Shown one piece after another: positions 11,175 through 64,000 of a stretch of 64,000 nucleotides of DNA. A program made the position numbers and the translations under genes. Under the pieces are notes generated by a model. That model saw only the letters and a list, made by a program, of their open reading frames with translations. It had not been told where the DNA came from and did no database searches. The stretch comes from a virus (lineage: Duplodnaviria > Caudoviricetes), in IMG/VR virus record IMGVR_UViG_3300031857_000001. One strand, written 5' to 3'. The first letter of the stretch is position 1. Each line of letters starts with the position of its first letter.

Positions 11175-11188
11175 AAACTATGTATTTT

Positions 11189-11247: not shown

Positions 11248-11278
11248 AAAATAGTTATCACAATAAAAAAAAGATAAT

Positions 11279-30439: not shown

Positions 30440-30449
30440 ATTTTTAAAA

Positions 30450-31511: not shown

Positions 31512-31512
31512 A

Positions 31513-35213: not shown

Positions 35214-35214
35214 A

Positions 35215-36923: not shown

Positions 36924-36925
36924 AA

Positions 36926-37267
36926 TTAAAATCCCTTATAATATTTAACAGAATCTTCAATCAATGATTTATTAGTTAATATAGAATTCTCAATCATACG
37001 GTTTACCGCTTGTACATATTTAGGTCTTTTAACTTTAAAACAAATATCAATTTTACGTTTTAAATCGGCAATTTCCGAATCATTTTCCGCAACACTGATA
37101 GAGTCCTCAAGATACCACATGCGACAATGTAAAATAGCCAATTTTTCAATCACCTCTCCTATATTGTCAGTTTCAATTAAATCATCAGGAATGGTAACAT
37201 TTTTACTATTAGTTAGTATCTGATTTACTTTATTTTTAATAATTTCTTCAATTCTCTCTCCAATCAT
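36926..37267 (-). CDS. Small helical protein, DUF4254-like
   Basis: 'EKLAILHCRMWYLED...LKRKID'. Confidence 0.5.
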   Translation of the reverse strand: MIGERIEEIIKNKVNQILTNSKNVTIPDDLIETDNIGEVIEKLAILHCRMWYLEDSISVAENDSEIADLKRKIDICFKVKRPKYVQAVNRMIENSILTNKSLIEDSVKYYKGF

Positions 37268-37268
37268 T

Positions 37269-38554: not shown

Positions 38555-39210
38555 ATTACCGACAAATAATCTTGACCGACAGGTTTATCAAACTCATCAA
38601 TTCTATCCCCAATAAATCTACCCATTTCTCTTTTAATCGGAAAAGGTTTTTTTTCAAAAAATTCATCATGGGTAATTTTATCATTTTCAAATAAAGAAAA
38701 AACAGTTTTTAGAAAAGTTTGGTCTGAACCGTATGATAAATTTTTATTTTTTACAAAATCGTTTATCATATCAGTTATAGATATAAAACCTTTTTTAATT
38801 CCCCACATTCCCCCTAAAATACCTAATCTATCACTCCCGAAAGGAATTCCATGGGCAGGATGGTCTCTCATAACATGTAAAGATTTTCCACTATTAATCC
38901 ATTCATCAACCGCCATTTTTTCTCTAACAGTTATTCTTGAATCGGCATCTCTAAAAACACAATATTCTGAGTCAGGTAAGTCTATTGCAAAAAATCTCCA
39001 AAACATCCCATAAAGTTTTTTTTCGGTTACATCGATTGTTAAAACTCCCAAATCGTTTAATTTATTTATAGTTTCTTTTGGTACTGTATTATCATAATAA
39101 ACGACCATTTGCCAATCTGAATATATGGTTTTCCATAATTCGGCATTTCTAATTGCCCCAACATTATATATGGGTTTATCCCCCCATAAACTAAAACTCA
39201 AATATTTCAT
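38551..39210 (-). CDS. Putative GT-A fold glycosyltransferase of an uncharacterised family
   Basis: 'SFSLWG', 'MFWRF', DxD in 'RDADSR', 'MRDHP.H', 'LGGMWG', 'DQTFL'. Confidence 0.55.
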   Translation of the reverse strand: MKYLSFSLWGDKPIYNVGAIRNAELWKTIYSDWQMVVYYDNTVPKETINKLNDLGVLTIDVTEKKLYGMFWRFFAIDLPDSEYCVFRDADSRITVREKMAVDEWINSGKSLHVMRDHPAHGIPFGSDRLGILGGMWGIKKGFISITDMINDFVKNKNLSYGSDQTFLKTVFSLFENDKITHDEFFEKKPFPIKREMGRFIGDRIDEFDKPVGQDYLSVI

Positions 39211-40625: not shown

Positions 40626-41218
40626 ATCCCTGTACTCCCAAAACCGTTATTACCTCTATCCTTGTTTATTTCTTCTTTGGTTTCTTGTAAATTGACCCAT
40701 TTTCCGTTAACGACTGGACACAAAACTGCTTGACCTATTTTTGTATCTTTATTTATTGTGTACGCATAACTATTTGTATTGAAAATAATAACTTGTATCT
40801 CACCGGTATATCCATTATCAACAGTTCCAGGGGAATTCATAACAAATAAACCTTGGTTTATCGCCAAACCACTTTTAGACCTAACTTGTATTTCATACCC
40901 ATCTTTAATATCGAATGATAAACCCGTTCTAACTAAACCCCTACCCAAAGGTTGAATAGTTGTGTCCTCCGTTGCGTATAAATCAAATCCAGAATCGGAT
41001 GGATAGTTGTAAAAAGGGTCCTTTGCCTCAGGGCGTAACTTCTTATAATTTAAAGTTATCTTTGGGGTATAATTCAAGATATCATTTTCAAGTTCCTTAA
41101 CATCAACCCCCGTAACTTTTAAAATCTCATCATAATCAAAATCATAACTGTTATCGGAAAGTAATTCTTTAATTTTTTCCGATTCTTCTTTTGACATTCC
41201 AAAAAAGTCTAAACTCAT
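40622..41218 (-). CDS. dut: Trimeric dUTPase with acidic N-terminal extension
   Basis: 'SGFDL', 'RSKSGLA', 'GTVDNGYTGEI', 'RGNNGFGSTG'. Confidence 0.95.
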   Translation of the reverse strand: MSLDFFGMSKEESEKIKELLSDNSYDFDYDEILKVTGVDVKELENDILNYTPKITLNYKKLRPEAKDPFYNYPSDSGFDLYATEDTTIQPLGRGLVRTGLSFDIKDGYEIQVRSKSGLAINQGLFVMNSPGTVDNGYTGEIQVIIFNTNSYAYTINKDTKIGQAVLCPVVNGKWVNLQETKEEINKDRGNNGFGSTGI

Positions 41219-41943
41219 TTTAATTCTTTTAATTTTTTTATTATATCAATCAAAACTTGAACATCACGTTCACAATATTCACTTATTTCTTTTAATTTTC
41301 TATCAATCCAATATGAATCATGAACCATATCTCCTGTTATCTCACCTTCTTTTGATGTTGGTATGTCCATACAAGAACAAAGCAAATCTAATGACCCTAT
41401 TGAACTATACGCCCCATATTGCCAAATTTCCTTGGTATCGATTGCCTTAATCTCCCAAGGCTTTGTGTCATATGAAGGTAGAATTGATGGGGGCATTAGA
41501 CCATTGATAATCATACGTTTGGCTAACATGGGTATATCAAAATTTTTAAGATTATGACCACATAAGTGAAAATCCAATTTACCACATCTGTCCAATAATT
41601 TTTGAACATCCTTTAGTAACTCTAACTCATCGTCACCTGAAAATGTTTGCATTTTCGTTTCACCCTTGTCTGTAACAAATGCAACACTAACACAAACAAT
41701 CTTTGAAAATTCTGGAACTAACGCGGCTCTTTTTGCAAATATTTTATCTCGTTTTTTTTCCTCCTGTTCTATATTACTTACCGTATTATCATCTTCAGGA
41801 AATCTTTTTAAAAACCAATCATAGTAATTTATAAATTGAGTTGCCACTTTAGGATTTAATGCCTGACATGTAGTGAAATCAGGACATCCCCCAACCGTTT
41901 CAATATCAATGAATAATATTTTGGTGATAGGGATTTTTATCAT
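41215..41943 (-). CDS. DEDDy 3'-5' exonuclease (PolB-exo-like)
   Basis: 'FIDIETV', 'GHNLKNFDIP', 'EYCERDV'. Confidence 0.88.
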   Translation of the reverse strand: MIKIPITKILFIDIETVGGCPDFTTCQALNPKVATQFINYYDWFLKRFPEDDNTVSNIEQEEKKRDKIFAKRAALVPEFSKIVCVSVAFVTDKGETKMQTFSGDDELELLKDVQKLLDRCGKLDFHLCGHNLKNFDIPMLAKRMIINGLMPPSILPSYDTKPWEIKAIDTKEIWQYGAYSSIGSLDLLCSCMDIPTSKEGEITGDMVHDSYWIDRKLKEISEYCERDVQVLIDIIKKLKELK

Positions 41944-43160
41944 TGTACCAAAGTTTTATACCATTCAGCTCTATTTTTTGTAACGTTTCTCAAATCATAA
42001 GTGTCCTTTACAGTTTCATAAAGTCGTTCACCCATGTCGGTAATCATACTTGGATTTTGAATGAGTTTCTTAATGTACTTAGACCAATCACTATGATTTT
42101 TATGTTCATCAACAAGTAAAGCGTTTCCATCAACAAAGTTACCATTTTTCAAACAATGTTTCAAATCTATGGTATATGGTCCAATCTCAGAAGCAATAAG
42201 TGCCTTTTTATAAAAACCCGCTTCGATAACCTTAAGTTGAGATTTCATTCTATTAAAGATATGGTTTTTGATTGGGGCCAACGAAATGTCCAACTTAGAG
42301 TAGTTCATTGCGTATGTAGTTACAGGTTTTGTCCAAACTCTACGATATGGTAAACTAGTTTCATTTGGGAATTCAACATCTTTAAATTCCATCAAAAATT
42401 TCTTATACTCGTCACCAACAATTTCGTACTTGTTTGTGAAAATTTCTTCATATCTAACCCAAACAGTTTCGTGAGGAAGAATATCTCTACGTTTTTCTTC
42501 TCCTGTTTTTGGATTAATTTCGGTCATTGTACCACGAGTATCAAACCCACAAATAACATACTGAACTTTATCATTTATTTCTTTCCCATTTTTCTCAACC
42601 ATTCCATCCAATAACATTAAATCATGGAGGTGTGAGGAACCACCTAGCCATCCTACTCTAATTCTTTCGGATTCTAATGTTGGTTGTCTGAATTGAGGTT
42701 CACTTGGGTCAATGGCATTTGGGAAAATAATAACATTTTTGTTTATTTTCTTGATTTCATCGGCAAAAATTGTTGTTGTGGTTGTTACGTAACTAGCCTC
42801 ACGTAGATTGGCAACAATCTTTTCGTTCAATTTATGATTAACAATTAACTGATGAATTGGATGTTCCTTTGTAGGTAACCAATAATCGTCAATATCCACA
42901 ACAACGATAATACCTAATGATTTAAGTTGTCGGATGAGTTGGGGTACAATATCGTAGTTTTGTCCTATACTTCTGTGAGCGTGAACTATTTGGTATTGTT
43001 TCCAATAATTTACATCGTTTATTCTTGGTTCATAATCTATATCAACATGAAAATCATCAGGATATAGATTTTGTAACATGACATGAGGGTCCAATGACCT
43101 AAATTTACCAACACCTGTTCTATCCGATGGTAGAACTAAAACATTAATTTTTTCTTTCAT
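41940..43160 (-). CDS. GT-B (GT4-like) glycosyltransferase
   Basis: 'VVVDIDDYW', 'RVGWLGGSSH', 'DISLAP...FNRMKSQLKVIEAG'. ATG at 43160 is preferred over the TTG at 43208. Confidence 0.8.
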   Translation of the reverse strand: MKEKINVLVLPSDRTGVGKFRSLDPHVMLQNLYPDDFHVDIDYEPRINDVNYWKQYQIVHAHRSIGQNYDIVPQLIRQLKSLGIIVVVDIDDYWLPTKEHPIHQLIVNHKLNEKIVANLREASYVTTTTTIFADEIKKINKNVIIFPNAIDPSEPQFRQPTLESERIRVGWLGGSSHLHDLMLLDGMVEKNGKEINDKVQYVICGFDTRGTMTEINPKTGEEKRRDILPHETVWVRYEEIFTNKYEIVGDEYKKFLMEFKDVEFPNETSLPYRRVWTKPVTTYAMNYSKLDISLAPIKNHIFNRMKSQLKVIEAGFYKKALIASEIGPYTIDLKHCLKNGNFVDGNALLVDEHKNHSDWSKYIKKLIQNPSMITDMGERLYETVKDTYDLRNVTKNRAEWYKTLVQ

Positions 43161-43219
43161 AATTAAAAATAATAATGAAAGTATACGACGAAAATTACAT
43201 TTTATCAACTATGATAAAT

Positions 43220-43246
43220 AAAAAAACCCCCACATTTGTGAGGGTT
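43220..43246 (-). terminator. Rho-independent terminator, followed by TATTTAT (43214-43220)
   Basis: On the minus strand AACCCTCAC-AAAT-GTGGGGGTT-TTTTT. The single non-WC pair is a U-G wobble only in this orientation. Confidence 0.8.
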
Positions 43247-43251
43247 AAAGA

Positions 43252-43839
43252 TTACTGTATTTTTTTCACTTTCGTGACTTTTCCTTCGAATATATGTTTC
43301 CCTACTTTAAATGAAAATACATCGTTAGTTTTCGAAACAGATTCCGTTATCATACCATTTTCAGATAATACTTCTTGAACAACTTCTTTAAGTAGACTTC
43401 TAAGATTTTGATTATCAAGGATATTTTCTCTATGAGAGGTTGTTTCTTTAACCACGCCTTTACCTTGATATCCGTTCCCGTCTGAACCTAAACTCATAAG
43501 ACGAGCCGCTTTATCAACAAGTTCGTTTGATAATGTTGGTCCGCCCATGTTGTTTGGTTGAGAAATTGGATGTTCAATCATTAATTTTTTAATTTCATCG
43601 GGCAATTTTGATGATAAAATCTTATCTTGTGTTACGGGTTGTTGTGGTTTTGGCTGGTATGTACTTTCTTGTACTAAATCCTGTGGTAAGTTATATTTGG
43701 CCGATGGGGCGTCATATGATTCTACCATCGGAGTGTTAACGTCAGGTAAAGCGTCCGCTCTACGTGGGATTGTATTGTGTTTTTCCATTATCTTTTTGGA
43801 AATCATCAATTTTTGTATTAAGTCGTTCTCGTTTGTCAT
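43252..43839 (-). CDS. Hypothetical protein
   Basis: 195-aa ORF in a co-directional run. Confidence 0.7.
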   Translation of the reverse strand: MTNENDLIQKLMISKKIMEKHNTIPRRADALPDVNTPMVESYDAPSAKYNLPQDLVQESTYQPKPQQPVTQDKILSSKLPDEIKKLMIEHPISQPNNMGGPTLSNELVDKAARLMSLGSDGNGYQGKGVVKETTSHRENILDNQNLRSLLKEVVQEVLSENGMITESVSKTNDVFSFKVGKHIFEGKVTKVKKIQ

Positions 43840-43848
43840 AATTTAAAC

Positions 43849-44250
43849 TTATTGGGTAAATTCACTATTATCAAATATTGCGTTAACAATGACTCTTACC
43901 ATACTTTTATCCCCATTTGGATTGTAGTTTGGCCTAGGGGTGTTGAACTTTTCGTTTGTAGGTTTGAAGGATAGAATTTTATCAACTCTAAACAATCTCC
44001 AACCAGGTAAGGGTTGTTCTCCTTTATATGCGGTATGTGAAGCTCCTTGATAATCCCAAGCTCTTAATACGGGGTTATCTGCTTTACTATAACCAAAACA
44101 AACAGGTTCAATCTCTCTAAGACCTCTACCACCTGGTTCATCACCATCGTAGTAAATAACAATCTTATTTCTTTTTTTAATAGCATCAACAATAGAGTCA
44201 ATTGACGCTATTTCTAAAATAAGAGACTTTGTAACGTTGTAAAGTTTCAT
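43849..44250 (-). CDS. Stand-alone WYL-domain protein
   Basis: 'AIKKRNKIVIYY...REIEPVCFG...VLRAW...GWRLFRVDKI'. Confidence 0.75.
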   Translation of the reverse strand: MKLYNVTKSLILEIASIDSIVDAIKKRNKIVIYYDGDEPGGRGLREIEPVCFGYSKADNPVLRAWDYQGASHTAYKGEQPLPGWRLFRVDKILSFKPTNEKFNTPRPNYNPNGDKSMVRVIVNAIFDNSEFTQ

Positions 44251-44543
44251 TACGCCGATGGAGTCGTGTATGGATTATTCGGTTGATATTCATTAACCTT
44301 TATTTCTGCTTTCCTTTCAACTATATCTTGAATTGCACCTGCTTGTTGATTATAAACATCTAAGAATATACCAGTTCCTTTACCTTGTTCATCACCATCA
44401 GCTAAAGCGTCAGGATTTACAGATGAATATTCATATTGTTTATTGAAATCATTTTTGGTTAATAATTTTTTTCTTTCAATGTCTGCAATTGACGACAACT
44501 CATTACTCGGTTGGTCAAAACTAAGTGGTTCTACGTTTGGCAT
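44250..44543 (-). CDS. Hypothetical protein
   Basis: 97-aa coupled ORF. Confidence 0.7.
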   Translation of the reverse strand: MPNVEPLSFDQPSNELSSIADIERKKLLTKNDFNKQYEYSSVNPDALADGDEQGKGTGIFLDVYNQQAGAIQDIVERKAEIKVNEYQPNNPYTTPSA

Positions 44544-44547
44544 ATTA

Positions 44548-45018
44548 TTAAATTATTTTTTTTATTAAATCGTTTATTCTTTTTAGACTTTCAGTAACTT
44601 CCAAATCATAAAATTCAACATTTGACTTATGACTTTTACTAGACCTATTTGCACTGTCCAATCCATCTTTCTCATGTGTTTGTATATATTGATTAGGTAA
44701 AACTTCAGATTTAACTTTTTTTCCCAAATCAACATCAGTTCTCATTGAGCCTAAGGTTCTATTTACCCATTCTTTAACATAATGACCTCCATTTAATATA
44801 AATGGTAAATCATTCTCACGACCATTAAAATTATCAAAGAAGTTTTTCATTCTTTTTAATTGTTGGTATGTAACTTCTTTTGAATCTCTTAATTCAATAT
44901 TCCTACGATATCCTTCGGTTGTTTCATCAGCACCTTCAGCCGCCCCGTAACATTGTTCGAGATAACCAACCACATCCTCAGGTAGAGGTACTTTATGTCC
45001 GTATAAATCCTTATTCAT
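44548..45018 (-). CDS. Hypothetical protein
   Basis: 156-aa coupled ORF. Confidence 0.7.
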   Translation of the reverse strand: MNKDLYGHKVPLPEDVVGYLEQCYGAAEGADETTEGYRRNIELRDSKEVTYQQLKRMKNFFDNFNGRENDLPFILNGGHYVKEWVNRTLGSMRTDVDLGKKVKSEVLPNQYIQTHEKDGLDSANRSSKSHKSNVEFYDLEVTESLKRINDLIKKII

Positions 45019-49393: not shown

Positions 49394-51940
49394 ATGTCAC
49401 TAACAGGAAAAACCATAGGTCAATTAACCTTATTAGGAACTCCAACTGCGGATACTTTAATTCCGGTTGAATATAATGATGCAACGTATCATATTGAGTT
49501 CTCATCAATAACTTCTAATTCAACAGTTGAGGTAACTTACTCTGAACTTGTTGATAAAATTACTGGTGAGACATTAAACACGGGAAGTTATTATATTATA
49601 ACCGACTTTAGAACTTGTTATGACCAGCCAGATTATAATAATGTAAAAGACCCAATTACTACGGGAATATATAAAAGTGCCGATACCGTATCGCCTATTG
49701 TTGTGTTTGCAACATCTGCAAATACAATATCTATAGATGCGTTCCAACCTGAGTTTCCTTTTGATAAAATAAAATACGATTATAGTTTTAACGCAACTGA
49801 GCATACTGCAGGACCTGCATTTGGTAGAATTACAGAAAGAATTGATAATTTTAATAATAGAACGGACTATGACCACAGAACTATATTATTTAAGAGATAT
49901 CGTGGATATTCATATAATGAAAACAGTCCACTGGCAGGACTTGTCGGTATAAGTGGTATAACAGGAACCACAGGAATATTATATGGTAATACAGGTACAA
50001 CATTTAACTCAAACTTATTTGTAGGAGATTATATTGCGGTAAGAAATTTAAATCCTTATCTTTTCGAGATTATTTCAGTTGAGGGTGATTCTCTTGCCAC
50101 AATATCAGGCGTTACTATAAGTGAAACAACCGATTCTCCTTACTATACCGCATTCGATGATGGTATAATGAGTTATTATCAACCAAATGTAAGAGCAAAT
50201 GAAGTTTTTGAATATACAACATTTGGAGATGCATTGGTGGATAGTTCTGTAGTAAATAACTATATCGGTGACCAAGCCAATCTATATTTAGAAGATGGTA
50301 CTGGGGAGTTTTTATTAGCAAATAATGTGTTTATAAGTGGTTCATTCCTTAATAACAGAATTGGAAATGGTTCTTATAATAACACATTTAATGATGACTG
50401 TGACAGTAATCAAATTGGAGACAGATTTTATAATAACTCAACAAATGATGATTTTGATGGTAATATAATCGGAGATTTTTTCAGTAACAATTATATCACG
50501 GCTAATTTTAACAATAATAGAATTGGTAGTGATTTTGATTTTAATATTTTAATCGGAGGGTCTTTTTACCGAAACAATATTGGAAATGACTTTGCTAGTA
50601 ATGTTTGGACTAATGGTGATTTCCAAAATAATGAGATAGGAAACCAATTTAATGATAATAATATCTATGATGATTTTTATAATAATGATATTGGTAATGG
50701 ATATAATAATAATGAAAGTTATTCAGAATTTTATCGTAATTTAATTGGGAACGGATATAATAGTAACACCGTATATTCAGATTTCTATGAAAATAATATT
50801 GGACACGTTTTTGTAGATAATACCATTGGAACCAATTTAACTATTGGGACATACGATTTTTACAGAAACATAATTGGTAGTGGATTTAACAATAACGAAA
50901 TTACAAATGATTTCTATGAAAATGAAATTGGTTATGGTTTTAATGATAACACAATTAGGTCATCATTTAGTTACAATGACATTTTAAATAATTTTTATGA
51001 GAACACTATATATTCGGTTTTTGAAAAAAATAAAATAATGAATGATTTCAATACTTGTACTATAGGTAACTCTGAGGATATCGGGGATAATGACTTCATA
51101 AGTAACGATATAATGAATAATTTTAAAGGTAACGATATTCTAAATGATTTTGAGAATAACACAATTAAGACCGATTTTAAGGGAAACGAGATTTTTGCGG
51201 ATTTTAGCAATAATAACGTTGGATTTGCATGTGCGGTTAACGTTTTTAGTGGAGATGTGACAAATAATATTTTTGGTGATTTTTTCACTCTGAATACTTG
51301 TGAAGGACAGTTTAGATACAACACTATTGGAATTGGTTTTTTTAGTAATGACATAGGTGATAGTTTTGGAGTAGGAGGAGGAAACTATAGAGGTAATAGA
51401 ATTGGAAATAATTTTAGTAATAATACTATTGGTGAATATTTTTACAGTAACATAATTGAAGAAAATTTTGAGAATAATACGGTAGGTTACTATTTTCAGT
51501 CCAATGATATAAAAGTTAATTATTTAAATAATATTGATTTTACAACACTTCAAGGAAACGTATTGACAATTTCTAACACAACTCCAAGCGGGGCAACAGA
51601 TTCAACTTTTTCTGTAACGCAAACGACTACAACAGGTCACGGAATAGGTGCGGAATTCGAGGTAATTGTTTCGGGTAATATTGTAACTACTGTAACAATA
51701 TTGTCTGCAGGAACTGAATATTTAATTGGTGACCAAATTACTGTAAGTGCGGTTCAGTTCGACGGAGCAGAGGATTTAGTAATAACAGTCGATTCTGTTT
51801 CAGATGAACCGCTTGTGTATACAACAGCAAATTGTACAATTCAAACTTCAAGAGACGGATTTAATTTAATTACAACTTTAGACTGGAATACAGTTTCTTG
51901 GTATATTTCAGATGCAATAAACGGACCATATAATCCATAA
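49394..51940 (+). CDS. Tail-fibre/spike-like protein with Asn-rich 11-residue (NxIGNxF) beta-helix repeats
   Basis: Long run of repeats such as 'NNRIGSDFDFN', 'NNEIGNQFNDN', 'RNLIGNGYNSN'. Confidence 0.7.
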   Translation: MSLTGKTIGQLTLLGTPTADTLIPVEYNDATYHIEFSSITSNSTVEVTYSELVDKITGETLNTGSYYIITDFRTCYDQPDYNNVKDPITTGIYKSADTVSPIVVFATSANTISIDAFQPEFPFDKIKYDYSFNATEHTAGPAFGRITERIDNFNNRTDYDHRTILFKRYRGYSYNENSPLAGLVGISGITGTTGILYGNTGTTFNSNLFVGDYIAVRNLNPYLFEIISVEGDSLATISGVTISETTDSPYYTAFDDGIMSYYQPNVRANEVFEYTTFGDALVDSSVVNNYIGDQANLYLEDGTGEFLLANNVFISGSFLNNRIGNGSYNNTFNDDCDSNQIGDRFYNNSTNDDFDGNIIGDFFSNNYITANFNNNRIGSDFDFNILIGGSFYRNNIGNDFASNVWTNGDFQNNEIGNQFNDNNIYDDFYNNDIGNGYNNNESYSEFYRNLIGNGYNSNTVYSDFYENNIGHVFVDNTIGTNLTIGTYDFYRNIIGSGFNNNEITNDFYENEIGYGFNDNTIRSSFSYNDILNNFYENTIYSVFEKNKIMNDFNTCTIGNSEDIGDNDFISNDIMNNFKGNDILNDFENNTIKTDFKGNEIFADFSNNNVGFACAVNVFSGDVTNNIFGDFFTLNTCEGQFRYNTIGIGFFSNDIGDSFGVGGGNYRGNRIGNNFSNNTIGEYFYSNIIEENFENNTVGYYFQSNDIKVNYLNNIDFTTLQGNVLTISNTTPSGATDSTFSVTQTTTTGHGIGAEFEVIVSGNIVTTVTILSAGTEYLIGDQITVSAVQFDGAEDLVITVDSVSDEPLVYTTANCTIQTSRDGFNLITTLDWNTVSWYISDAINGPYNP

Positions 51941-51944
51941 TAAT

Positions 51945-52193
51945 ATGAGAATTAATATTTTAACAGAAAATGATAAAGTAGAACAAGTAAGAGAAGCTTG
52001 GGTTACTAAAAACGTAATGAAAATTCCAGTATCTCCAACAGGAGAAGAACCAGCAACACATTGGTTTTGTTCAATGGCTGGAGAGGAATCCAAAATGATG
52101 GAGATTTACAATAAAAAGAATTTATCTATAATGGAATTAGAAATAGGTCCAAAAGAGTTTCTTAACAAATGGGGTCTGAAGATTATAAAATAA
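51945..52193 (+). CDS. Small hypothetical protein
   Basis: 82-aa ORF coupled to the fibre gene. Confidence 0.65.
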   Translation: MRINILTENDKVEQVREAWVTKNVMKIPVSPTGEEPATHWFCSMAGEESKMMEIYNKKNLSIMELEIGPKEFLNKWGLKIIK

Positions 52194-52798
52194 TTAAAAA
52201 TTTTATAAGTCATAAAGAAGTTAATGACATATTAAAATGGATTGATACTTTAAATAATCAAGAATTTAAAGCAAATCACCATTTAGCAGAACTTTCAAAA
52301 ACCCTTAATGGTAATTCATATATTTTTGATATCTCTCAAACAGAATATACAAATTATATAACAAATTTTCAGTCGGTGGGTGAGGTCAAAAAAGACCCCG
52401 TCCCAGACTTTATTATTAATATAATAGATAGAATTTCTGAAACAATTAACTTACCAAAAGAACATATGTTCTTACAGGCGGTTGATATGAATAAGGGTGG
52501 AAAAATTGACCCACATTATGACGCATCAATACAAGGGTATATCAATTACAAATGTAATGTTAGTGTTTTATCTGAAGATTATAATCTATATGTTGATAAA
52601 ACATATGTCCCTGTTGAGCAGAGAGACCTTTATTGTTTTGAGGCATCTCTTTATAAACATTGGACAAATGAATTTAACTCAAGGAGAGTTTTTTTAAGTT
52701 TTGGTTTTATTGTCCCATATAATGTCACGGGTCGAAATGAAAATGACCCAAGAGTTAGATTAAGTCAAAGAATACAAAAGTATTTCCAACAACTTTAA
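52169..52798 (+). CDS. 2OG-Fe(II) oxygenase
   Basis: HxD...H...R set: 'PHYDAS', 'YKHWT', 'RRVFLSFG'. Confidence 0.8.
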   Translation: MGSEDYKIIKNFISHKEVNDILKWIDTLNNQEFKANHHLAELSKTLNGNSYIFDISQTEYTNYITNFQSVGEVKKDPVPDFIINIIDRISETINLPKEHMFLQAVDMNKGGKIDPHYDASIQGYINYKCNVSVLSEDYNLYVDKTYVPVEQRDLYCFEASLYKHWTNEFNSRRVFLSFGFIVPYNVTGRNENDPRVRLSQRIQKYFQQL

Positions 52799-52938
52799 TA
52801 TTTATACAATAAAGTTGTTTGATGAAAGATTTGACCTTTAAAAGTCCGTTCAATTATAAAAAAAATTCTATATTTTTTAACAATAAACGAAATCTCGAAT
52901 TTACAAAAAATTCGTTAATAAATAATTCGTAAAATTGG

Positions 52939-56237: not shown

Positions 56238-58016
56238 ATGTTTAAAAGTGTAAATATATTAAAATCAGTTAGCCCCGAAGGAGTTTTTCAATTAAATAAA
56301 ACTTCATTTGATGACATTTTAAAAAATTCACATTCTAAAATTACATTACAGTTACCGATTGGAAATGAACTTCATAACTTAGAATTAAACAAATCAGAAT
56401 TATTTGGGTCTAATTTTTATAGAACTTATAGCTCATCTCAAATCTCACAAAGAAATTTGGGGTCTCACTATAAAGGTAAATTAAGTGGATTTGAAAATTC
56501 ATCGGTTGCTGTTTCATTCACTGAATTGGGGGTTGTAGGTTTAATTTTGGATGGTGAAAATCAATATGAAATTTCCCCATTTGGTACTGATTCATATAAA
56601 GTTTTACCAGTCGAGGGTGTACATGAATTTGAATGTGGGGCCGGTCTTTCCCCGGACTACGACGAGGAAAAAAAGAACTCGTTAGAAAACAATCTCAGGT
56701 TAAGTTCCAATGGGGATATTTTAATGAAATCCCCAACCGCAACAACAAGATGTCTTAATGTTTATTGGGAGGCGGATACGGACATATATGACACGCTAGG
56801 AGTAAACTCAGAATCATATTTAGCATCACTATTTAACGCGGTACAATTATTATTTTCTAATGATGGTATACAAATTTATTTATCTGATTTATTCGTAAAT
56901 TCAGGAACTTCATTTTACTATCCAACCATTCCATATAATCAAATTGGTACTTTGGATATGTTATATGAATTTGAGGTGGTTAGACCGACATTTAATGGGG
57001 ATGCCGCGCAACTTTTTTCATTTAACAAAGGGTATGGTGGAGGAGTTGCTTGGGTTGATGCGTTATGCGCAAGGCCATACGCTTTTTGTTGGATAACATC
57101 GTCATTCCAACAACCAATGACATATAGTTGGACCGTGGCGGCTACAACACATGAACATGGACACACGTTCGGTTCACCACACACATTTTCTTGTAGCTGG
57201 AATACGAATAATTTTCAACCTGGAGACAATCCCCGAGGTTGCTCAAGAATTGATAGTTGTAGAATTGAATGTACCGCAATTTTGAGCTCTGGTTGCACTG
57301 TGGCTCAACAAAATCCAGGATATGGAACTTGTAGTATAACATCTTCATCAAATTGTGGAGCATGTTGCGCTCCCAATTATTGTTGTGGAGTCCCTGGAAG
57401 TCCGGCTCAAGGTGGAACAATTATGAGTTATTGTCACCAAGTTTCGGTAGGTACTAATCTGAACTTAGGTTTCGGACCACAACCTAGACAAAGAATGCTC
57501 GATGCAATCAATAGCCTACCTTCAACTTGTATAGAATGTTTGGGCCCACCACCTGAAGAAACTCTAACACCAACACCAACTCTCACTAAAACACCCACCC
57601 CGACACCATCAATAGGTACCAGTCCTAATCCTACCCCAACTCAAACTATAACACCTACTAAAACAATAACTAACACACCAACTTTAACTAAAACTCCAAC
57701 ACAAACTAAAACACCAACAATAACTAAAACTTTAACACCTAGTATAACCCCAACAATAACCAGCACACAAGTCAATAATAATTGTCAGTATTGTTTGAGT
57801 TTACATCCATGTACAGTTAATAGGTTTTTTTGGCAATGTTGTGAGCCGTATGATAGTTTTAGAGTTTATCTAATACCTTTTGATGTTTCAGAGACTCTAG
57901 TAAATGGAAATACATATTATGTAGAAGCCGTTGGTTTTTCAGGATGTGCCGTGTATGATGTAACATTAACAAATGCGGATTTTTCATATGAATATATAAA
58001 CATTATAACTCCTTAA
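56238..58016 (+). CDS. Reprolysin/M12B-like zinc metalloprotease 1 (prodomain, catalytic domain, Thr/Pro stalk, CCEP module)
   Basis: HExxHxxGxxH 'HEHGHTFGSPH' (57150-82); Met-turn 'GTIMSY'; prodomain 'FECG'. Confidence 0.9.
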   Translation: MFKSVNILKSVSPEGVFQLNKTSFDDILKNSHSKITLQLPIGNELHNLELNKSELFGSNFYRTYSSSQISQRNLGSHYKGKLSGFENSSVAVSFTELGVVGLILDGENQYEISPFGTDSYKVLPVEGVHEFECGAGLSPDYDEEKKNSLENNLRLSSNGDILMKSPTATTRCLNVYWEADTDIYDTLGVNSESYLASLFNAVQLLFSNDGIQIYLSDLFVNSGTSFYYPTIPYNQIGTLDMLYEFEVVRPTFNGDAAQLFSFNKGYGGGVAWVDALCARPYAFCWITSSFQQPMTYSWTVAATTHEHGHTFGSPHTFSCSWNTNNFQPGDNPRGCSRIDSCRIECTAILSSGCTVAQQNPGYGTCSITSSSNCGACCAPNYCCGVPGSPAQGGTIMSYCHQVSVGTNLNLGFGPQPRQRMLDAINSLPSTCIECLGPPPEETLTPTPTLTKTPTPTPSIGTSPNPTPTQTITPTKTITNTPTLTKTPTQTKTPTITKTLTPSITPTITSTQVNNNCQYCLSLHPCTVNRFFWQCCEPYDSFRVYLIPFDVSETLVNGNTYYVEAVGFSGCAVYDVTLTNADFSYEYINIITP

Positions 58017-58032
58017 AAAGTATATATAAAAT

Positions 58033-60051
58033 ATGAAACATTTAAGTCTACATAAAAGTTTTACAAATGATGGTGTTTTTGAATTAAATTTAAATACAAT
58101 AACCTCACTTAAAACTCAAACTAATGAAAGAATTTATCTGTCTTTACCTATAGATGGGATTGAAAAACAAGTTGAAATATATAGAACAAATATTGGGTCC
58201 GATGATTTTAAAGTTGTAAATGAATTAGGTCAAATTTTATCGTATGATTCAGGAATTCACTACGGTGGTCGGGTCATTGGCTCTGAAAAATCATTTGTTG
58301 CATTATCTTTTAGTGATGACGGAATTATCGGAATAGTTCAAGATAATACTAAAGAGTATGGGTTTACCAAAATAGATGAAAATTTTCATAGACTTCATGA
58401 AACGATTAATGATAACGAAGGGTTTGAATGTGGATGTGAATTACTATCACATAATAATAATTTACAGGAATTAAAATTATCCCCAAAAACTTTAACGTTA
58501 CCATATGCTTCTAAATGTATTAATATACGATGGGAAGCGGATTATGATGTGATACAACAATTTGGTGGAACGGGTCCGGCCATAACATGGTTGACCGCAC
58601 TTTTTAATGCACAAAAACAACTTTATGCTAATGATAATATTCAGGTTAATTTAGCCTTATTATTCTTATGGGAAAATGGTCCTTCAGGTTTTGTTGTGGG
58701 AACAACAGATGTTATACTAGATGCCTATGTAAATTATAGAAATGCAAATGGTGGCATTGCCGAGAATTGTGGTATGCTACTGAGTTTTGGAACTTCTCCA
58801 ACAAGCAATTCAGGTGCGGGTATCGCATATGTGGGGGCTCTTTGTGGTCCCAACAAATATGGTTATACACAATTAAAAAGAGGAGATTCTACAGGAACTC
58901 CTAGTTCTACTGTATATAGTAGAAGTGTTAAAGTAGTTACTCACGAGCAAGGTCACTTATTAGGTTCAAGACATACTTTTAGATGTAATTGGAATACCGC
59001 TTGGGTATATGGAGATACTACTTTTGGTGCTGAGGCCATTGACGGGACTTCCACGGTAGAGGTACCTCCAGGAGTTCCTGCGTGTGCTCAACTACCAATA
59101 CCACCCGGATTTCAAGGAACTATAATGAGTTATGGAGACAGTGCAGGAACCGCTCCGATAAATTTCGCATTAGGGTTTGGTCCAATACCTAGACAAAGAA
59201 TGTATGACTTCATTAATAACAATTTTGCGTGTTTAACATGTCAGGCGGTTCCATTTGAAACCCCAACACCAACTCCAACAACAATTACTCAAACTCCAAC
59301 ACCAACTCCAACCAAAACACCAACACAAACCCCCACAAAAACTCCAACTAAAACAAATACACCAACTGTAACTCCAACCAAAACATCTACTCCAACACCA
59401 ACTAAAACTATAAACGCAACACCTGACCCCACTCAAACTCCAACTATAACTAAAACAGTAACAAATACAAATACTCAAACCACCACCGTAACACCCACCA
59501 ATTGTTGTAGTAGATTTACATTAACTTCAGGAGTAAACGACACTGGAGGTAGTACATTTAATGTAATTTCATGTAATGGAATCCCGCAAACAACGACTGT
59601 ACCTCAAGGAACTTCAATAGATATTAATTGCGCATCCACAGTAACATTAACTTCAGGAACAGGAACATTTGTAAGATATCCTGGTTGTGTTTGCACAAGT
59701 CCAACCCCAACTAAAACTAACACCCCTACAGTAACCCCAACTACCACGATAAATCAAAGTCCTCAACCGACCCCTACACCAACAGCAACACCAACGGCTA
59801 CACCTCTTAGGGGAGATTGTGCTTATTGTATAAGTATTTATCCTTGTTCCGTTAGTAAATATTTTACCAGTTGTTGTGAACCATTTGAAAACATTAGAAT
59901 ATTTTTAATACCAGCAAATGTCGCCGACACATTAATAGATGGTGAATCATACTATGTTGAGGCTGAAGGTTTTTCTAATTGTGCTATTTATAATGAAAGT
60001 ATAACAACCGCTCAGAATTCGTATAAATATATAAGTATAACCCCTAATTGA
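58033..60051 (+). CDS. Reprolysin/M12B-like zinc metalloprotease 2
   Basis: '[11 protein letters not shown]' (58942-74); 'GTIMSY'; 'FECG'; same architecture as paralog 1. Confidence 0.9.
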
Positions 60052-60062
60052 TGATTTAGTAT

Positions 60063-63000
60063 ATGAAACAATTGAATTTACTCAGAAATATTAATTTAGA
60101 TAATTCATTTGAAATTGATGTGTCGGAATTAAGGACTGTATCATCACAGAAATTTGATACAATGACTATGTCAATTCCGTTAGGGGGTATTAATAAAAAC
60201 GTTATTCTAAAAAAAGTTAATATATTTTCTGAGAATTTTACGGTCACTACATCTGATGGAGAAAATATCGAATGGGATTTGGGTGAACATTATAGAGGAG
60301 AAATCGAAGGAGAAGAAAATTCTTTTTGTTCTTTAAGTTTCACAAATAATGAAATATATGGACATATCGTAACGACTGGCTCAACATATGATATAAATTT
60401 TGTCTCAGGCTCAACATACAGAACATCAAGTGTAAATGAAGAAAATCCTATAAATTTTACATGTCATCATGAACCTAAAGAAGGTCAAACATATTCAAAT
60501 CCATATAACCCTTCTTTAAATACAAAAAAAAACACCGGTCTTAAAACATTAAATCCTTATGTTGCAGACCAGGCAACTAAATTGGTAAAAATAGATTGGG
60601 TAGTTGATTATGACATACGACTTTTGAAAGGTGCAAATACAGTTTCGTATATAACTTCAATTTTTAATGCAACAAAAACTTTATATGAAAACGACGGGAT
60701 TTTTGTCGTACTTAATTTTTTACACATTTTTACCACATCATATTCACCGTATAGAACAACACCTCTCACGGTACCTATCAATGACGGGTGCGGGTATGGT
60801 TCCTGTTCTATGGTTTTATTGTTGTTTAATTTCAGATATAGTTTAGGTAACGGAATTTATCCCGCAGGAACTAGCGCGGCTAATTTTTCCGGTGATTTAA
60901 AACATTTGTTAACCGCTACTTTTCCAACAACCTCTTTCTCAAATCCTGCTAATAAAATACAAGGACTGGCCGATGGTATACAGGTTTTGTGTAACCCAAT
61001 ATCTTCTGATTATACCGTAGTAATTGATGGTCAAGAATATTTGGCGACAAGTACTAATTCACCAGTATGTTTCAGTCAAATTGATGTAAATGCAACCGCT
61101 AACTCAACAACATATTCATCTACAGTACAAGTAATTACACACGAACAAGGTCATTTAATGGGTTCAAATCATACCCACGGATGTTACTGGAACACAACCA
61201 ATTTTGTACCCGGAGGTAACCCAATTGGTTGTAACAGAATTGATAGTTGTGTTACTTTTGAAACTTATACTTTTTTAGGTTGTCCATCATCAGTTCAAAC
61301 TGTTTTTGAAATTGTAAATGGTGTGTGTCCTTTTCCGGGCACCCCACCCAACAGTGGTGGTACCATAATGAGTTATTGTGGTTTAGTCGGAGGAGGAAGT
61401 CAACTTTTTACAAACGGATTCGGCCCCCAACCACAACAAAGAATTGTAAATTTCATTAATTCATTATCTTGTTTACAGTCGCTAGACACCACACCAACCC
61501 CAACTCCTACTTTAACCTTAACCCCGACCAAAACCCCGACATCTACTCCGACTAAGACAATCAATGCCACCCCAAACCCAACTCAAACTTCTACAATAAC
61601 AAAAACATCAACTGTAACTCCCACTAAATCTGTAGGAGTTAGCCCAAACCCAACCACCACACCGACAATAACTCCAACAAATACCGTTACAAGAACTAAA
61701 ACTAAAACACCAATTTCAACAAATACCACAACACCAACAATAACTCCCACTAATGGTGATGATTGTAAAAACTGTACAGACCAACACCCATGTATAACAC
61801 AAACTCCGACAGTAACTCCAACTCAGCCATGTGATACCGTGATATCACAACCATCAACAAGTCCATTATTTAATATTGGTTTATCTAAATATAATAACTC
61901 AGGGTATACTAACATTGGAACCAGATTTTACTCATACGGATTTCAATTAGGAGGAAGTGGTTCGACATATTATTTTTCAAACACAAATGATGTATGGAAA
62001 AGTACCGACAGTACAAATGGTCCCTTAAACAGAAGTGGTATTTGGTCATTATCTACATTTCCGTCTAATACTTGGTTGGGATTTTCTTTTTGTATTGATG
62101 TTGTTGATTTTGCTAATTTTTATTACGTTGGTTTTGGTGCGGATAATGCCTTTAGATTGACTATAGATGGTATCGAAACTATTAACACACTGTTGGGTGG
62201 TTATAACAATAGTACTTTGACATTTAGTAATTGGCATGTATATCAGATTCCACTATACCCTGGTCATCACGTATTGAACGTTTATGGTCTAAATCTATCA
62301 CAAACAACATCAGGTGTTTTTGGATGTGAAATTTATCAAAATACACTTGATGAATTAACAGGAGCAACCTCACCCAATAACTTAAACATTATTTTTTCGA
62401 CTAGCTCTTATTCCGAATCAAATGCCGAAATAATACAATCATCAACTGGTTTACAATTGAATAGTGGATATACTTGTCCTTCTGGTTTTGTTTATGAATC
62501 GTGTACGGGTGATTGTGTAAGATTCATATCATGTCCACAACCAACTTTGACTCCAACCACAACAAACACACCAACTAAAACTAACACAATAAATTTTGTA
62601 GGTGTTACACCCACTAAGACACCTACCCCAACTAAATGTTGTTCAACATATATACTTTCATCAAGTCCTTCAGATGTTACAGGTTCAACATTTACAATAG
62701 TACGATGCGTTGGTAATTTGTTTTTAACTCTACCAGTACCTGTTGGACAATCTCAAACTATAACATGTTCATATAATGCAACTTTAATAAATGGATTAGG
62801 TTCGATAACACAATTACCTGGTTGTGATTGTAACACGGTTACCCCAACACCAACCCCAACCACTATAGAAGATTTGGGCCCCTGCTTCAATCGTTGGATA
62901 CCAACCTATACGTTCCCTTTTAACCAAAATCAACAAACTGTATTTACCGGTTTTACACAAGGAATTTTTGTTGAGATGGTACTTTCTGGTTCGGTTGAAA

Positions 63001-64000
63001 TTGCAACCTACAACGGTAATCCTCCAAGTTGTGACGTTATTAGAAGTTTTAATCCTTATACTTTAACCGCATTAAAGCAAGTTTATGCGGGTGGAATTGG
63101 GCAAAGTATTTTTAAACAACCAACAGCCCAAAGTGCTTTTGTTATAACATTTAATTTTGGTCAACCAATTAACGAAGTTACATTAGTTATAGGAGGTTCT
63201 GGAACATACGATTTCGGAGGTGGCAACGAAGTTTTTATAATAACAACAAATACTGAAATTCCAACAATTACATCAAGTATAAATTGTTATACCACAATTA
63301 ATAACAACCAAATTCTTTCAGGTGCAAATATAGTACCACCACCTGTAGGTTCAGGTACCGGAGGTGGGTTATTCACTATAAATTGTATTACGGATTATAC
63401 AACTTTAGTAATATCTGGTGCCGGTGGGTATGATGGGTCTGAAATTTCTATTTGTGAAATTTATGTACCAGGTACAACTAGAACCCCAACCCCAACCATC
63501 ACACGTACAAAAACACCAACTATAACTCCAACCACATCTTTTGGTTTTGTCCCAACTTCTACACCCACTATAACACAAACAAAAACCAACACAAATACTT
63601 CGACACAAACAAAAACCAACACCCCGACAAAAACACAGACTAAAACACCCGGTTTACCACAAAGTCCGACTCCAACACCAACTAATTGTTGTTCTAATTT
63701 TCAAATATCACTATTACAAGGATTTAATAGTGCGATTTACAATGTCAGCTCATGTCAAGGACAATCAGGAACTTTTACATACACAGGTTTATCCTTTATA
63801 ACAATAGAATGTGCAACAAACGTTACAAATGTAAGCGGAGCGTCTATTGTTAGGTTACCAGGATGTGGATGCCCAACACCAACCCCTACTCCAACACTAA
63901 CTCCAACACCTGTTACACAATGTTCTAATTTAGTTTGGCCTGACCCAACAATAGTTGTGAATGGAATAACAATAACTGTTAATAGAACAGGAAATACTTA
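60063..64000 (+). CDS. Reprolysin/M12B-like zinc metalloprotease 3 with long modular C-terminal extension (3' truncated; absent from ORF track)
   Basis: ATG at 60063 (MKQLNLLRNINL...). In-frame 'HEQGHLMGSNH' at 61140-72, 'GGTIMSYC' and TPT tracts. The frame was in register at every point spot-checked up to base 64000. Confidence 0.88.
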   Translation, partial: MKQLNLLRNINLDNSFEIDVSELRTVSSQKFDTMTMSIPLGGINKNVILKKVNIFSENFTVTTSDGENIEWDLGEHYRGEIEGEENSFCSLSFTNNEIYGHIVTTGSTYDINFVSGSTYRTSSVNEENPINFTCHHEPKEGQTYSNPYNPSLNTKKNTGLKTLNPYVADQATKLVKIDWVVDYDIRLLKGANTVSYITSIFNATKTLYENDGIFVVLNFLHIFTTSYSPYRTTPLTVPINDGCGYGSCSMVLLLFNFRYSLGNGIYPAGTSAANFSGDLKHLLTATFPTTSFSNPANKIQGLADGIQVLCNPISSDYTVVIDGQEYLATSTNSPVCFSQIDVNATANSTTYSSTVQVITHEQGHLMGSNHTHGCYWNTTNFVPGGNPIGCNRIDSCVTFETYTFLGCPSSVQTVFEIVNGVCPFPGTPPNSGGTIMSYCGLVGGGSQLFTNGFGPQPQQRIVNFINSLSCLQSLDTTPTPTPTLTLTPTKTPTSTPTKTINATPNPTQTSTITKTSTVTPTKSVGVSPNPTTTPTITPTNTVTRTKTKTPISTNTTTPTITPTNGDDCKNCTDQHPCITQTPTVTPTQPCDTVISQPSTSPLFNIGLSKYNNSGYTNIGTRFYSYGFQLGGSGSTYYFSNTNDVWKSTDSTNGPLNRSGIWSLSTFPSNTWLGFSFCIDVVDFANFYYVGFGADNAFRLTIDGIETINTLLGGYNNSTLTFSNWHVYQIPLYPGHHVLNVYGLNLSQTTSGVFGCEIYQNTLDELTGATSPNNLNIIFSTSSYSESNAEIIQSSTGLQLNSGYTCPSGFVYESCTGDCVRFISCPQPTLTPTTTNTPTKTNTINFVGVTPTKTPTPTKCCSTYILSSSPSDVTGSTFTIVRCVGNLFLTLPVPVGQSQTITCSYNATLINGLGSITQLPGCDCNTVTPTPTPTTIEDLGPCFNRWIPTYTFPFNQNQQTVFTGFTQGIFVEMVLSGSVEIATYNGNPPSCDVIRSFNPYTLTALKQVYAGGIGQSIFKQPTAQSAFVITFNFGQPINEVTLVIGGSGTYDFGGGNEVFIITTNTEIPTITSSINCYTTINNNQILSGANIVPPPVGSGTGGGLFTINCITDYTTLVISGAGGYDGSEISICEIYVPGTTRTPTPTITRTKTPTITPTTSFGFVPTSTPTITQTKTNTNTSTQTKTNTPTKTQTKTPGLPQSPTPTPTNCCSNFQISLLQGFNSAIYNVSSCQGQSGTFTYTGLSFITIECATNVTNVSGASIVRLPGCGCPTPTPTPTLTPTPVTQCSNLVWPDPTIVVNGITITVNRTGNT

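Follow-up and report, generated by a model that had tools for sequence, protein, structure and literature searches.

The window analysed here, a stretch of 64,000 nucleotides, carried three tandem genes on the + strand that were predicted, from their sequences and from structural modelling, to encode latent zinc endopeptidases of the adamalysin/ADAM-type fold. The three open reading frames, 56238-58016 (protease 1, P0001, 592 aa), 58033-60051 (protease 2, P0002, 672 aa) and 60063-63998 (protease 3, P0003, 1312 aa), each kept an intact prodomain and catalytic domain with all catalytic residues conserved. The gene of protease 3 (60063-64000) has its 3' end beyond the window, and its product is at least 1312 aa long. 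An earlier note had described three tandem protease genes without signal peptides, and this observation was confirmed and is well supported. Both the signal peptide and the T9SS sorting domain have been lost, and the enzymes are fused via Thr/Pro stalks to lineage-specific Cys-rich beta modules. The genome belongs to a giant, T4-like phage that infects freshwater Bacteroidota; in it, the tandem protease array is old and conserved and lies beside a tail-fibre-like gene.

The motif set listed in the earlier note was found in full in these reading frames. The prodomain of P0001 (approximately aa 1-165) contained a switch-like Cys133 within FECG (nt 56628-56639), and its catalytic domain (approximately aa 166-433) contained the zinc motif at nt 57150-57185, the Met-turn at nt 57414-57431 and an internal Cys-rich insertion (aa 325-382). 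A Thr/Pro stalk (aa 434-510, nt 57537-57767) and a C-terminal beta module, designated 'CCEP' (aa 512-592, nt 57771-58013), followed. In P0002, the prodomain FECG was located at nt 58423-58434, the zinc motif at nt 58942-58977 and the Met-turn at nt 59116-59133; downstream lay a Thr/Pro stalk (aa 402-491), a second Cys-rich beta module designated 'CCS' (approximately aa 490-558), another stalk (aa 552-595) and a C-terminal CCEP module (aa 592-672). P0003 had FTCH at nt 60456-60467 and an enlarged catalytic domain (zinc motif, nt 61140-61175; Met-turn, nt 61359-61376), after which came stalks, an extra domain at approximately aa 565-850 with a weak PA14-like lead, and two CCS modules starting at aa 859 and 1209 with a further domain (approximately aa 930-1130) in between. 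FECG started at aa 131 in both P0001 and P0002 and FTCH at aa 132 in P0003, while HExxHxxGxxH, the GTIMSY Met-turn and GFGPxPxQR were present in all three proteins, HEQGHLMGSNH (zinc) and GFGPQPQQR being among the versions observed. The stalks behind the catalytic domains, 44-90 residues long with 57-66% Thr plus Pro, and the Cys-rich modules were thus present C-terminal of the catalytic domain, as had been noted before.

The three proteins scored 49.5, 44.0 and 31.3 bits against Pfam Reprolysin_5 (PF13688; E 8e-13 to 3e-7), for which the curated gathering threshold is 27 bits, and 1925 homologues were detected at E<=1e-10, so that the motif set is beyond chance. No variation was seen at C133, H305, E306, H309, H315 and M396 among the aligned homologues (71 of 71), the alignment spanning the prodomain from residue ~10 onward, and the corresponding zinc-site residues, M396 and C133 were likewise invariant in the phage clade (16 members aligned). 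The AF2 model of P0001 (pTM 0.86) matched the ADAM17 prodomain-metalloproteinase (PDB 9o54, 9o58, 8snl) across both domains of the zymogen, with Z 23.9 and rmsd 3.7 over 318 residues (model residues 13-438). Catalytic domains of snake-venom enzymes, ADAMs and ADAMTSs were matched with Z 17-18 and rmsd 2.5-3.0 over ~188 residues, the value for ADAMs and snake-venom metalloproteinases being Z ~18. A sequence search of the PDB gave no match to the protease. The scores, the invariant residues and the zymogen fold together bear out the reprolysin-like zymogen identity proposed in the earlier note.

According to the metzincin literature, adamalysins carry as their signature an Asp that immediately follows the third zinc-binding His (HExxHxxGxxHD). 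The residue in this position was Thr in all three proteins and in the family consensus; they were therefore classed as adamalysin-like and not as canonical M12B. Their identity to ADAM/adamalysin (MEROPS M12B) zymogens was ~18%, and, unlike ADAMs, they are of prokaryotic/viral source and have no disintegrin, EGF or transmembrane parts. Both groups have a Cys in the segment linking prodomain and catalytic domain, as in the cysteine switch. In the model, this segment had pLDDT 54-81; the invariant Cys may bind the zinc as such a switch. Fragilysin, in which the zinc is blocked by Asp and not by Cys, is also a Bacteroidota enzyme. Its zymogen, profragilysin-3 of the Bacteroides fragilis toxin (PDB 3p24, 7pnd), is adamalysin-like with a large N-terminal prodomain, as in P0001, and aligned with the P0001 model over both domains (Z ~18, ~275-288 residues) at an identity of ~9%. 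Unlike the phage proteins, fragilysin is exported by a signal peptide and bears no stalk or extra modules.

The closest relatives were secreted M12-like enzymes of Bacteroidota (PF13688; 'M12 family metallo-peptidase', usually with Por_Secre_tail), with 30-40% identity and E down to 1e-47. The prodomain Cys, HExxHxxGxxH-T, GTIMSYC, GFGPQP and conserved cysteines were common to both, and the homology extended over the whole prodomain and catalytic domain, which agrees with the likeness to secreted Bacteroidota proteases suggested earlier. The phage clade differed in missing ~45-95 N-terminal residues, including the signal peptide, in having no T9SS domain, FN3, PKD or FG-GAP, and in its Thr/Pro stalks, lineage-specific Cys-rich modules and tandem phage arrays. 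The absence of a signal peptide was judged by a hydropathy heuristic, the maximal 10-residue N-terminal hydropathy being 0.3-0.75 in the three proteins and >=2.0 in 205 of 253 homologues. An N-terminal extension upstream is impossible, because each reading frame starts with the earliest start codon available downstream of a stop in its frame, and each protease ATG lies 5-16 nt past the stop of the preceding gene. Low hydropathy and the want of upstream coding room thus uphold the claim of a missing signal peptide. Por_Secre_tail (PF18962), the T9SS sorting domain, was not matched in P0001 or P0002; the C-terminus of P0003 is outside the window. Signal peptides were present on the neighbouring genes at 951-1526 and 1553-3880, the latter encoding an S8 subtilase.

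Phylogenetic analysis placed 19 signal-less homologues in one clade nested within the signal-peptide-bearing Bacteroidota T9SS-type M12 enzymes, with a support of 98 (FastTree, 224 rows) and 100 (IQ-TREE). Each of the three paralogues fell in its own subclade with orthologues on other contigs, and they were only 32-33% identical to one another, indicating that the array is old. The active-site surroundings also differed, as the earlier note states, with a Cys-rich insertion of ~25 aa ahead of the Met-turn in P0001 and insertions of 20-45 aa ahead of the zinc helix in P0003. In the first-protease orthologue of the related locus L003, Gly was replaced by Asp within HExxHxxGxxH, the three His, the Glu and the Met-turn being kept. 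Another T4-like phage (G002) encoded a homologue in complete exported form, including Por_Secre_tail. No match to the protease was obtained by tblastn against INPHARED phages.

The phage setting assumed in the earlier note was substantiated by a syntenic IMG/VR contig (G001), which bears a T4 Gp23 capsid gene (E 1.8e-64); within the 64-kb window, no core structural gene was recognised. Gene order was identical in the loci L001, L002 and L003. Synteny of the tail-fibre-like gene (49394-51940, + strand, 848 aa) with the protease array extended to L002 and L003, and residues 46-175 of its product resembled two phage proteins: gp99 of Sphingomonas phage PAU and the protein annotated as tail fibre in Clostridium phage phiCT453A, the gene of which comes after those of baseplate J and XkdU. 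A PDB sequence search with this protein gave a chance-level match only (E 0.29). A conserved gene for a 209-aa protein (52169-52798, + strand) occupied the same place in L002 and L003; its product is possibly a 2OG-Fe(II) oxygenase, and as such a candidate modifier of the stalks. The more specific idea of a prolyl hydroxylase was set aside, as sequence searches, including the PDB, gave no support and the lead came from an Atlas feature only. A sugar island at about 29-45 kb is also adjacent, and the stalks might carry O-glycans or hydroxylation.

Immediately upstream of the proteases, P0004 (52939-56232, + strand) encoded a protein of 1097 aa with 34% Thr plus Pro and no protease domain. Its N-terminal domain was accompanied by long Thr/Pro stalks, by a propeller-like repeat region that recurs in 11279-17299, and by two copies of CCEP (aa 525 and 1039). 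As P0004 ends 5 nt before protease 1, the two genes probably form one transcription unit, and a terminator scan found none between P0004 and the proteases. A promoter-like motif, ATATTTATAAA, occurred in four exact copies, which preceded the genes at 3960, 7200, 11279 and 49394 by 15-50 nt, and a one-mismatch copy, ATATTTATACA, was located at 52798-52808 (+ strand), 140 nt upstream of P0004. The protease block and other giant-protein genes thus have a promoter-like motif in common. A scan for sigma-70 promoters and terminators showed no enrichment.

The stalks and the two Cys-rich beta modules belong to no known family, and both small modules recur, together with stalks, in giant proteins of this lineage. 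The C-terminal CCEP module, 80 residues long, was present in P0001, P0002 and the non-enzymatic giant protein P0004 and was confined to this gene cluster; the last protease of L002 and L003 had none. Its distribution amounted to one IMG/VR contig and 0 of ~186,000 species genomes, and tblastn against INPHARED phages gave no match to it. A region search of a set of 5.8 billion proteins with the module, with which few candidates share words, returned two proteins. Pfam, PHROGs and NCBIfam gave nothing for the modules, P0004 or the extra domains of P0003, and PDB sequence searches with the latter were without match. Matches to phrog_15511 were rejected as low-complexity Thr/Pro. Fold searches with CCEP and CCS (PDB Foldseek, AFDB clusters, ESM Atlas, VIA wide) returned noise-level rows only, the best being Ena1C (Z 5.8), an OB-fold SSB (Z ~5) and phage clusters (TM 0.3-0.6); neither module matched a capsid- or tail-binding fold in these searches.

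Since the export signals were lost and Thr/Pro stalks were fused to phage-only modules, the proteases probably act outside the cell after lysis. We propose a single capture, in which a forebear of this lineage of T4-like giant phages took the gene of a secreted M12-like protease from its Bacteroidota host, and a later triplication of the captured gene. The enzymes would be made late in the cytoplasm, where the prodomain that they have kept would hold them inactive, its invariant Cys serving as a cysteine switch on the zinc, and they would leave the cell only through lysis. On leaving it, they would most probably be held on the virion surface via the C-terminal module at the stalk end. Outside the cell, the cysteines common to the secreted homologues would oxidise and the prodomain would be displaced or cleaved off, whereupon the three enzymes, with their different substrate loops, could cut Bacteroidota cell-surface or matrix proteins and thereby ease receptor access or prevent trapping on debris. 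S-layer, adhesin or biofilm proteins are putative substrates, and the virion-borne location is equally presumptive. Taken as a whole, from capture and triplication of latent zymogens through release at lysis and tethering to the virion to cleavage of surface proteins, we judge this explanation to fall a little short of an even chance. The cysteine content of 21-41 counts against it, as these proteins would have to fold in the cytoplasm.

Tethering is the least certain step of this proposal; the gene context suggests that the proteases are perhaps attached to the phage particle. In favour of a virion location, the proteases lie in an operon-like block with the tail-fibre-like gene, have the promoter-like motif in common with giant-protein genes, and have dropped their export signals though the phage retains signal peptides on other proteins. 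The particle would then display two or three latent ADAM-like proteases on flexible, possibly modified stalks, active only extracellularly, with the 80-residue module as a docking tag common to non-enzymatic fibre proteins, a picture that we advance tentatively and consider more doubtful than the proposal itself. The order of enzyme, Pro/Thr linker and small beta module is the classic design of a free secreted enzyme with a binding module, and it fits a release of free enzymes at lysis, outside the virion, whose Cys-rich modules bind a substrate or surface in a CBM-like manner. Such enzymes might strip debris of its receptors, loosen the matrix or a biofilm, or make nutrients available near the burst. 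Lectins and CBMs were indeed among the weak fold neighbours of the modules, and no structural hallmark gene is adjacent. Free release is nearly as likely as a virion location, because the C-terminal module has no known capsid- or tail-binding match, is restricted to one cluster and does not occur on the last protease in the relatives. It is nevertheless rather unlikely in itself: the ancestral route of signal peptide and T9SS, which could have exported a free enzyme before lysis, was discarded, although signal peptides are still used by the phage and G002 keeps the exported form; moreover, the genes are co-located with the tail-fibre-like gene, possibly with a common promoter motif, and CCEP is also part of the non-enzymatic P0004.

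The remaining alternatives appeared highly improbable. The N-terminal leader M-K-x-L-N-L-L-K...F-E-L/I could be read as a capsid-targeting sequence of the T4 type that is cleaved by the prohead protease; the proteases would then be packaged inside the capsid and injected into the host, and the T4-like nature of the phage and the F-E-L or F-E-I near residue 17-19 in several clade members accord with this. The leader was rejected as a targeting sequence, since it aligns with the first prodomain strands of signal-peptide-bearing bacterial homologues (e.g., '..LLELQP..') and is modelled within the prodomain sheet (pLDDT 87-94), and the -3 residue is V, T, S, R or I, not consistently L or I, with Q in place of E in protease 1. 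Known internal proteins, moreover, do not resemble products that range from 600 to more than 2000 aa and carry long stalks and numerous cysteines; cargo within the capsid is thus very improbable. Proteases active in the cytoplasm during infection for host takeover would explain the cytoplasmic synthesis that follows from the lack of a signal peptide. This is just as hard to credit, for the inhibitory prodomain with its invariant Cys and the cysteines common to secreted homologues were retained, Thr/Pro stalks and modules of surface type serve no purpose within a cell, and literature searches turned up no precedent. The Gly-to-Asp change of the L003 first protease might hint at catalytically dead proteins that keep only the fold for structural or adhesive purposes; the three His, the Glu and the Met-turn, invariant in 16 of 16 aligned clade members and preserved in that very orthologue, leave this scarcely plausible.

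To our knowledge, phage enzymes that breach surface layers are almost all glycanases, lyases and peptidoglycan hydrolases. The proposed analogy to virion-associated depolymerases is purely functional, in that a particle-carried enzyme would clear a surface layer before adsorption; known depolymerases are mostly trimeric beta-helix glycanases or lyases, while the putative virion enzymes described here are metzincin zymogens of monomer type on a flexible stalk. Another parallel is the enhancin of baculoviruses, a viral metalloprotease that is associated with the particle, digests mucin of the insect gut and is thought to clear a proteinaceous barrier for the incoming particle, though it belongs to an unrelated protease family and a eukaryote-infecting virus and has no stalk/module layout. 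Proteinaceous surface layers of Bacteroidota comprise T9SS-anchored proteins, gliding adhesins and S-layers. Conserved and diversified true endoproteinases would mark such layers as a barrier against which phages deploy enzymes, and virion-borne enzymes would be the protein-cutting counterpart of glycan depolymerases, with a cysteine switch to restrain them while still in the cytoplasm. The locus is a clean natural case of re-targeting, a host's secreted zymogen having lost both export signals and kept its latency device, and suggests a route by which a dangerous enzyme can be produced in the cytoplasm but armed only once it has been released. A few virion-associated depolymerases cut polypeptide or lipid instead of polysaccharide (review, PMC6116005). 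Literature searches turned up no account of phage virions with reprolysin-like or M12 proteases, and the protease genes described here are not mentioned in the 'moraphage' paper on large aquatic Bacteroidota phages (PMC12619734).

About 100% of the sampled words of this phage were recovered in some lake metagenomes. Contigs matching exactly over all three protease genes occurred in two RNA libraries from lakes, both belonging to a single study; as these libraries may contain DNA, the contigs give a weak hint of transcription. The reported contig joints in the RNA libraries fell within Thr/Pro repeats and were disregarded. The phage was common in lake metagenomes from many studies.

Three closely packed open reading frames, all on the plus strand, encode the proteases P0001 (56238-58016, 592 aa), P0002 (58033-60051, 672 aa) and P0003 (60063 to the window end, at least 1312 aa). 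Pfam Reprolysin_5 matched each of them above the gathering threshold (E = 7.8e-13, 3.8e-11 and 3e-7, respectively). The motifs HExxHxxGxxH, GTIMSY and GFGPxPxQR were found at the expected positions in all three, together with FECG, FECG and FTCH, respectively, near residue 131. The reading of the earlier note, three tandem metalloproteases with these motifs, thus held far beyond chance. An exhaustive profile search retrieved 1925 homologues at E<=1e-10, and the prodomain cysteine (C133), the three zinc-binding histidines, the catalytic glutamate and the Met-turn methionine were invariant in a 71-homologue alignment. The residue after the third histidine of the zinc motif is Thr, not Asp. As Asp at this position is the adamalysin signature, the proteases are placed, as adamalysin-like proteins, in the bacterial Reprolysin_5 family and not among the canonical M12B enzymes.

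The AF2 model of P0001 residues 1-440 (pLDDT 80.8, pTM 0.86) matched solved zymogens best, with the human ADAM17 prodomain-metalloproteinase zymogen at the top (Foldseek E 4e-13). The comparison with the ADAM17 zymogen (VIA) gave Z 23.9 and rmsd 3.7 A over 318 residues (model residues 13-438). Profragilysin-3, the B. fragilis toxin, followed at Z ~18 with both domains covered, and many snake-venom, ADAM and ADAMTS catalytic domains matched at Z 17-18 and rmsd 2.5-3.0 A. As the model resembles the ADAM17 and profragilysin-3 zymogens over both prodomain and catalytic domain, the proposed zymogen character is supported by the predicted structure, in which the linker segment bearing the putative switch cysteine has pLDDT 54-81.

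The supposed lack of a signal peptide was borne out. The maximal 10-residue hydropathy at the N-termini of P0001-P0003 was 0.3-0.75, whereas it exceeded 2.0 in 205 of the 253 retrieved homologues. The bacterial homologues carry ~45-95 additional N-terminal residues, while the phage proteins begin directly in the prodomain. A hidden upstream signal peptide is impossible, because the preceding genes stop 5, 16 and 11 nt before the ATGs of P0001, P0002 and P0003. The T9SS sorting domain (Por_Secre_tail), frequent among the bacterial homologues, was not found in the window proteases by Pfam search. The loss of signal peptides is not general to the phage, because the products of 951-1526 (+), a small protein, and 1553-3880 (+), an S8 subtilase, keep typical ones. 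The subtilase (Pfam E 5e-31; phrog_3677 'protease') might conceivably activate the metalloprotease zymogens.

The comparison with bacterial enzymes that had been proposed was carried out. The leader M-K-x-L-N-L-L-K-x-x-N-x-D-x-x-F-E-L/I is common to 19 signal-less homologues, which formed a single clade with SH-like support of 98 (FastTree, 224 rows) and SH-aLRT of 100 (IQ-TREE mixture-model tree, quick search). The remaining rows were signal-peptide-bearing enzymes, the few with source names being mostly Bacteroidota. P0001, P0002 and P0003 are only 32-33% identical to one another, and each fell in a separate subclade together with orthologues of other contigs. The array therefore descends from one capture with old duplications after it. 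Paralogue number and order differ between the related contigs, P0001-like then P0003-like in L001 and P0003-like then P0002-like in L002 and L003, with at least two paralogues retained in every one. As the earlier note had observed, the loops around the active site differ, the variable segments being the one ahead of the zinc helix and the one from the third histidine to the Met-turn, where P0001 has a Cys-rich insertion of ~25 aa; this would fit different specificities of the paralogues.

The Thr/Pro stalks first noticed downstream of the catalytic domain comprise 44-90 residues with 57-66% T+P, and the accompanying Cys modules are of two small kinds, both modelled as compact beta domains (pLDDT ~90) with no known fold or family in sequence-family and structure searches. 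P0002 has one copy of the 'CCS' module (aa 490-558) and P0003 has two (aa 859-928 and 1209-1275). The 'CCEP' module is C-terminal in P0001 and P0002 and present in two copies in P0004, the Thr/Pro-rich giant protein directly preceding P0001 (52939-56232, +, 1097 aa). A pattern-based scan of limited sensitivity found CCEP in a single IMG/VR contig, the syntenic relative G001, where it is restricted to the protease gene cluster, and in none of ~186,000 species genomes. In L002 and L003, the final protease of the array has a different C-terminal ending. The structures nearest to CCS, at noise level, were the Bacillus endospore appendage subunits Ena1C (Z 5.8) and Ena2A (Z 4.1), which build disulfide-linked fibres; chains could be cross-linked through the cysteine pairs at either end of CCS. 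A ~280-aa domain of P0003 (aa 565-850; 61755-62612) gave a weak PA14-like Atlas lead (score 0.86, family on 13% of cluster members) and no match in Pfam or PDB.

Although few phage hallmarks lie inside the window itself, its relatives give good support for a giant T4-like phage. G001, a close relative (108 kb, CheckV completeness 37%), has a tail-fibre-like gene whose N-terminus is identical to that in the window, and it also encodes the T4 Gp23 major capsid protein (E 1.8e-64). The tail-fibre-like protein encoded at 49394-51940 is similar to the Clostridium phage phiCT453A tail fibre, which is encoded behind baseplate J and XkdU, and also to gp99 of phage PAU (E 5e-7). L002 and L003 keep the gene order of the window, from the tail-fibre-like gene through two small genes and the gene of a P0004-like Thr/Pro giant to the proteases. 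The 209-aa gene directly upstream of the P0004-like giant is also conserved (52169-52798, +; L002 5961-6593; L003 6132-6764). Pfam and PDB sequence searches found nothing for its product, and its nearest named ESM-Atlas cluster by feature search was 2OG-Fe(II) oxygenase (PF13640, score 0.94); it may be a protein hydroxylase of the stalks. An island of sugar-nucleotide and glycosyltransferase genes (~29600-45000, -), including DegT aminotransferase, GDP-mannose-dehydratase-like, epimerase and GT2 family enzymes, is flanked on either side by a block of Thr/Pro-rich giant proteins, and its enzymes may glycosylate the stalks.

The array represents a captured secreted zymogen from which both export signals have gone and in which selection preserved the prodomain and the active site. 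The proteases diversified and gained stalks and lineage-specific modules by fusion, and they stand in one block with the tail-fibre-like gene. The reverse case is an unrelated T4-like jumbo phage, G002 (L004; IMG/VR UViG_3300032050_000004, 222 kb, T4 Gp23 and tail sheath genes), whose M12 protease (9812-12220) has the complete bacterial design of signal peptide, three PKD_6 domains and T9SS sorting domain and clusters with bacterial sequences in the tree; this gene was captured independently and retains the host export route.

The window proteases would be made in the cytoplasm and held latent there by the prodomain, the reducing cytoplasm supplying the free thiol that a cysteine switch requires; once out of the cell through lysis, they would mature under the oxidising conditions there and cleave proteins of the surface or matrix. 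We tentatively favour tethering to the virion, because particle assembly is the simplest reason for giving up an available export route, and because the stalk, the shared end module and the gene neighbourhood all fit. Free release at lysis, with the same modules serving for binding, is a strong rival, though we consider it the less probable. Packaging as capsid-internal cargo is unlikely, as is action in the cytoplasm, where the prodomain would keep the enzymes latent. Nor are dead enzymes likely: the catalytic residues are invariant across 16 aligned members of the signal-less clade, and the first protease of L003 (9989-13687), with Gly to Asp in its zinc motif (HEQGHAFDSPH), retains all metal ligands.

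Literature searches found no account of reprolysin-like proteases that serve phages as virion or accessory enzymes, and the only structural neighbours in BFVD, both weak, were a ulilysin of Tupanvirus and the matrixin of a Maribacter phage. A review mentions no more than that polypeptide or lipid is the substrate of some virion depolymerases (PMC6116005). The array is a variation on a familiar enzyme rather than a wholly new type, because the Reprolysin_5-type family is known and abundant.

The window's four exact copies of ATATTTATAAA (3935, 7176, 11230 and 49374) all lie 15-50 nt upstream of the giant-protein genes at 3960, 7200 and 11279 and the tail-fibre-like gene at 49394, three of them behind a near-identical GGAGG...CCTCC-T8 hairpin terminator cassette. 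One-mismatch copies occur at 436 and 52798, the latter 140 nt upstream of P0004. With mismatches allowed, the motif was no more frequent than chance predicts (22 versus 17 expected); it is only where the exact copies stand that suggests a function, and ATATTTATAAA is a candidate phage, perhaps late, promoter in a repeated terminator-promoter unit. A terminator scan found no terminator-like site between P0004 and the proteases. Two lake RNA libraries from a single study contained contigs that matched portions of all three protease genes with zero mismatches, a weak hint of transcription, as RNA libraries may carry DNA. Eighteen runs belonging to 15 studies, mostly freshwater, contained the protease DNA at 91-100% of sampled words, and either the phage or the sample it came from has been widely sampled. 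The segment 56238-60051 reached ~100% of sampled words in several 2019 'fungus metagenome' runs and in freshwater and lake runs of many studies.
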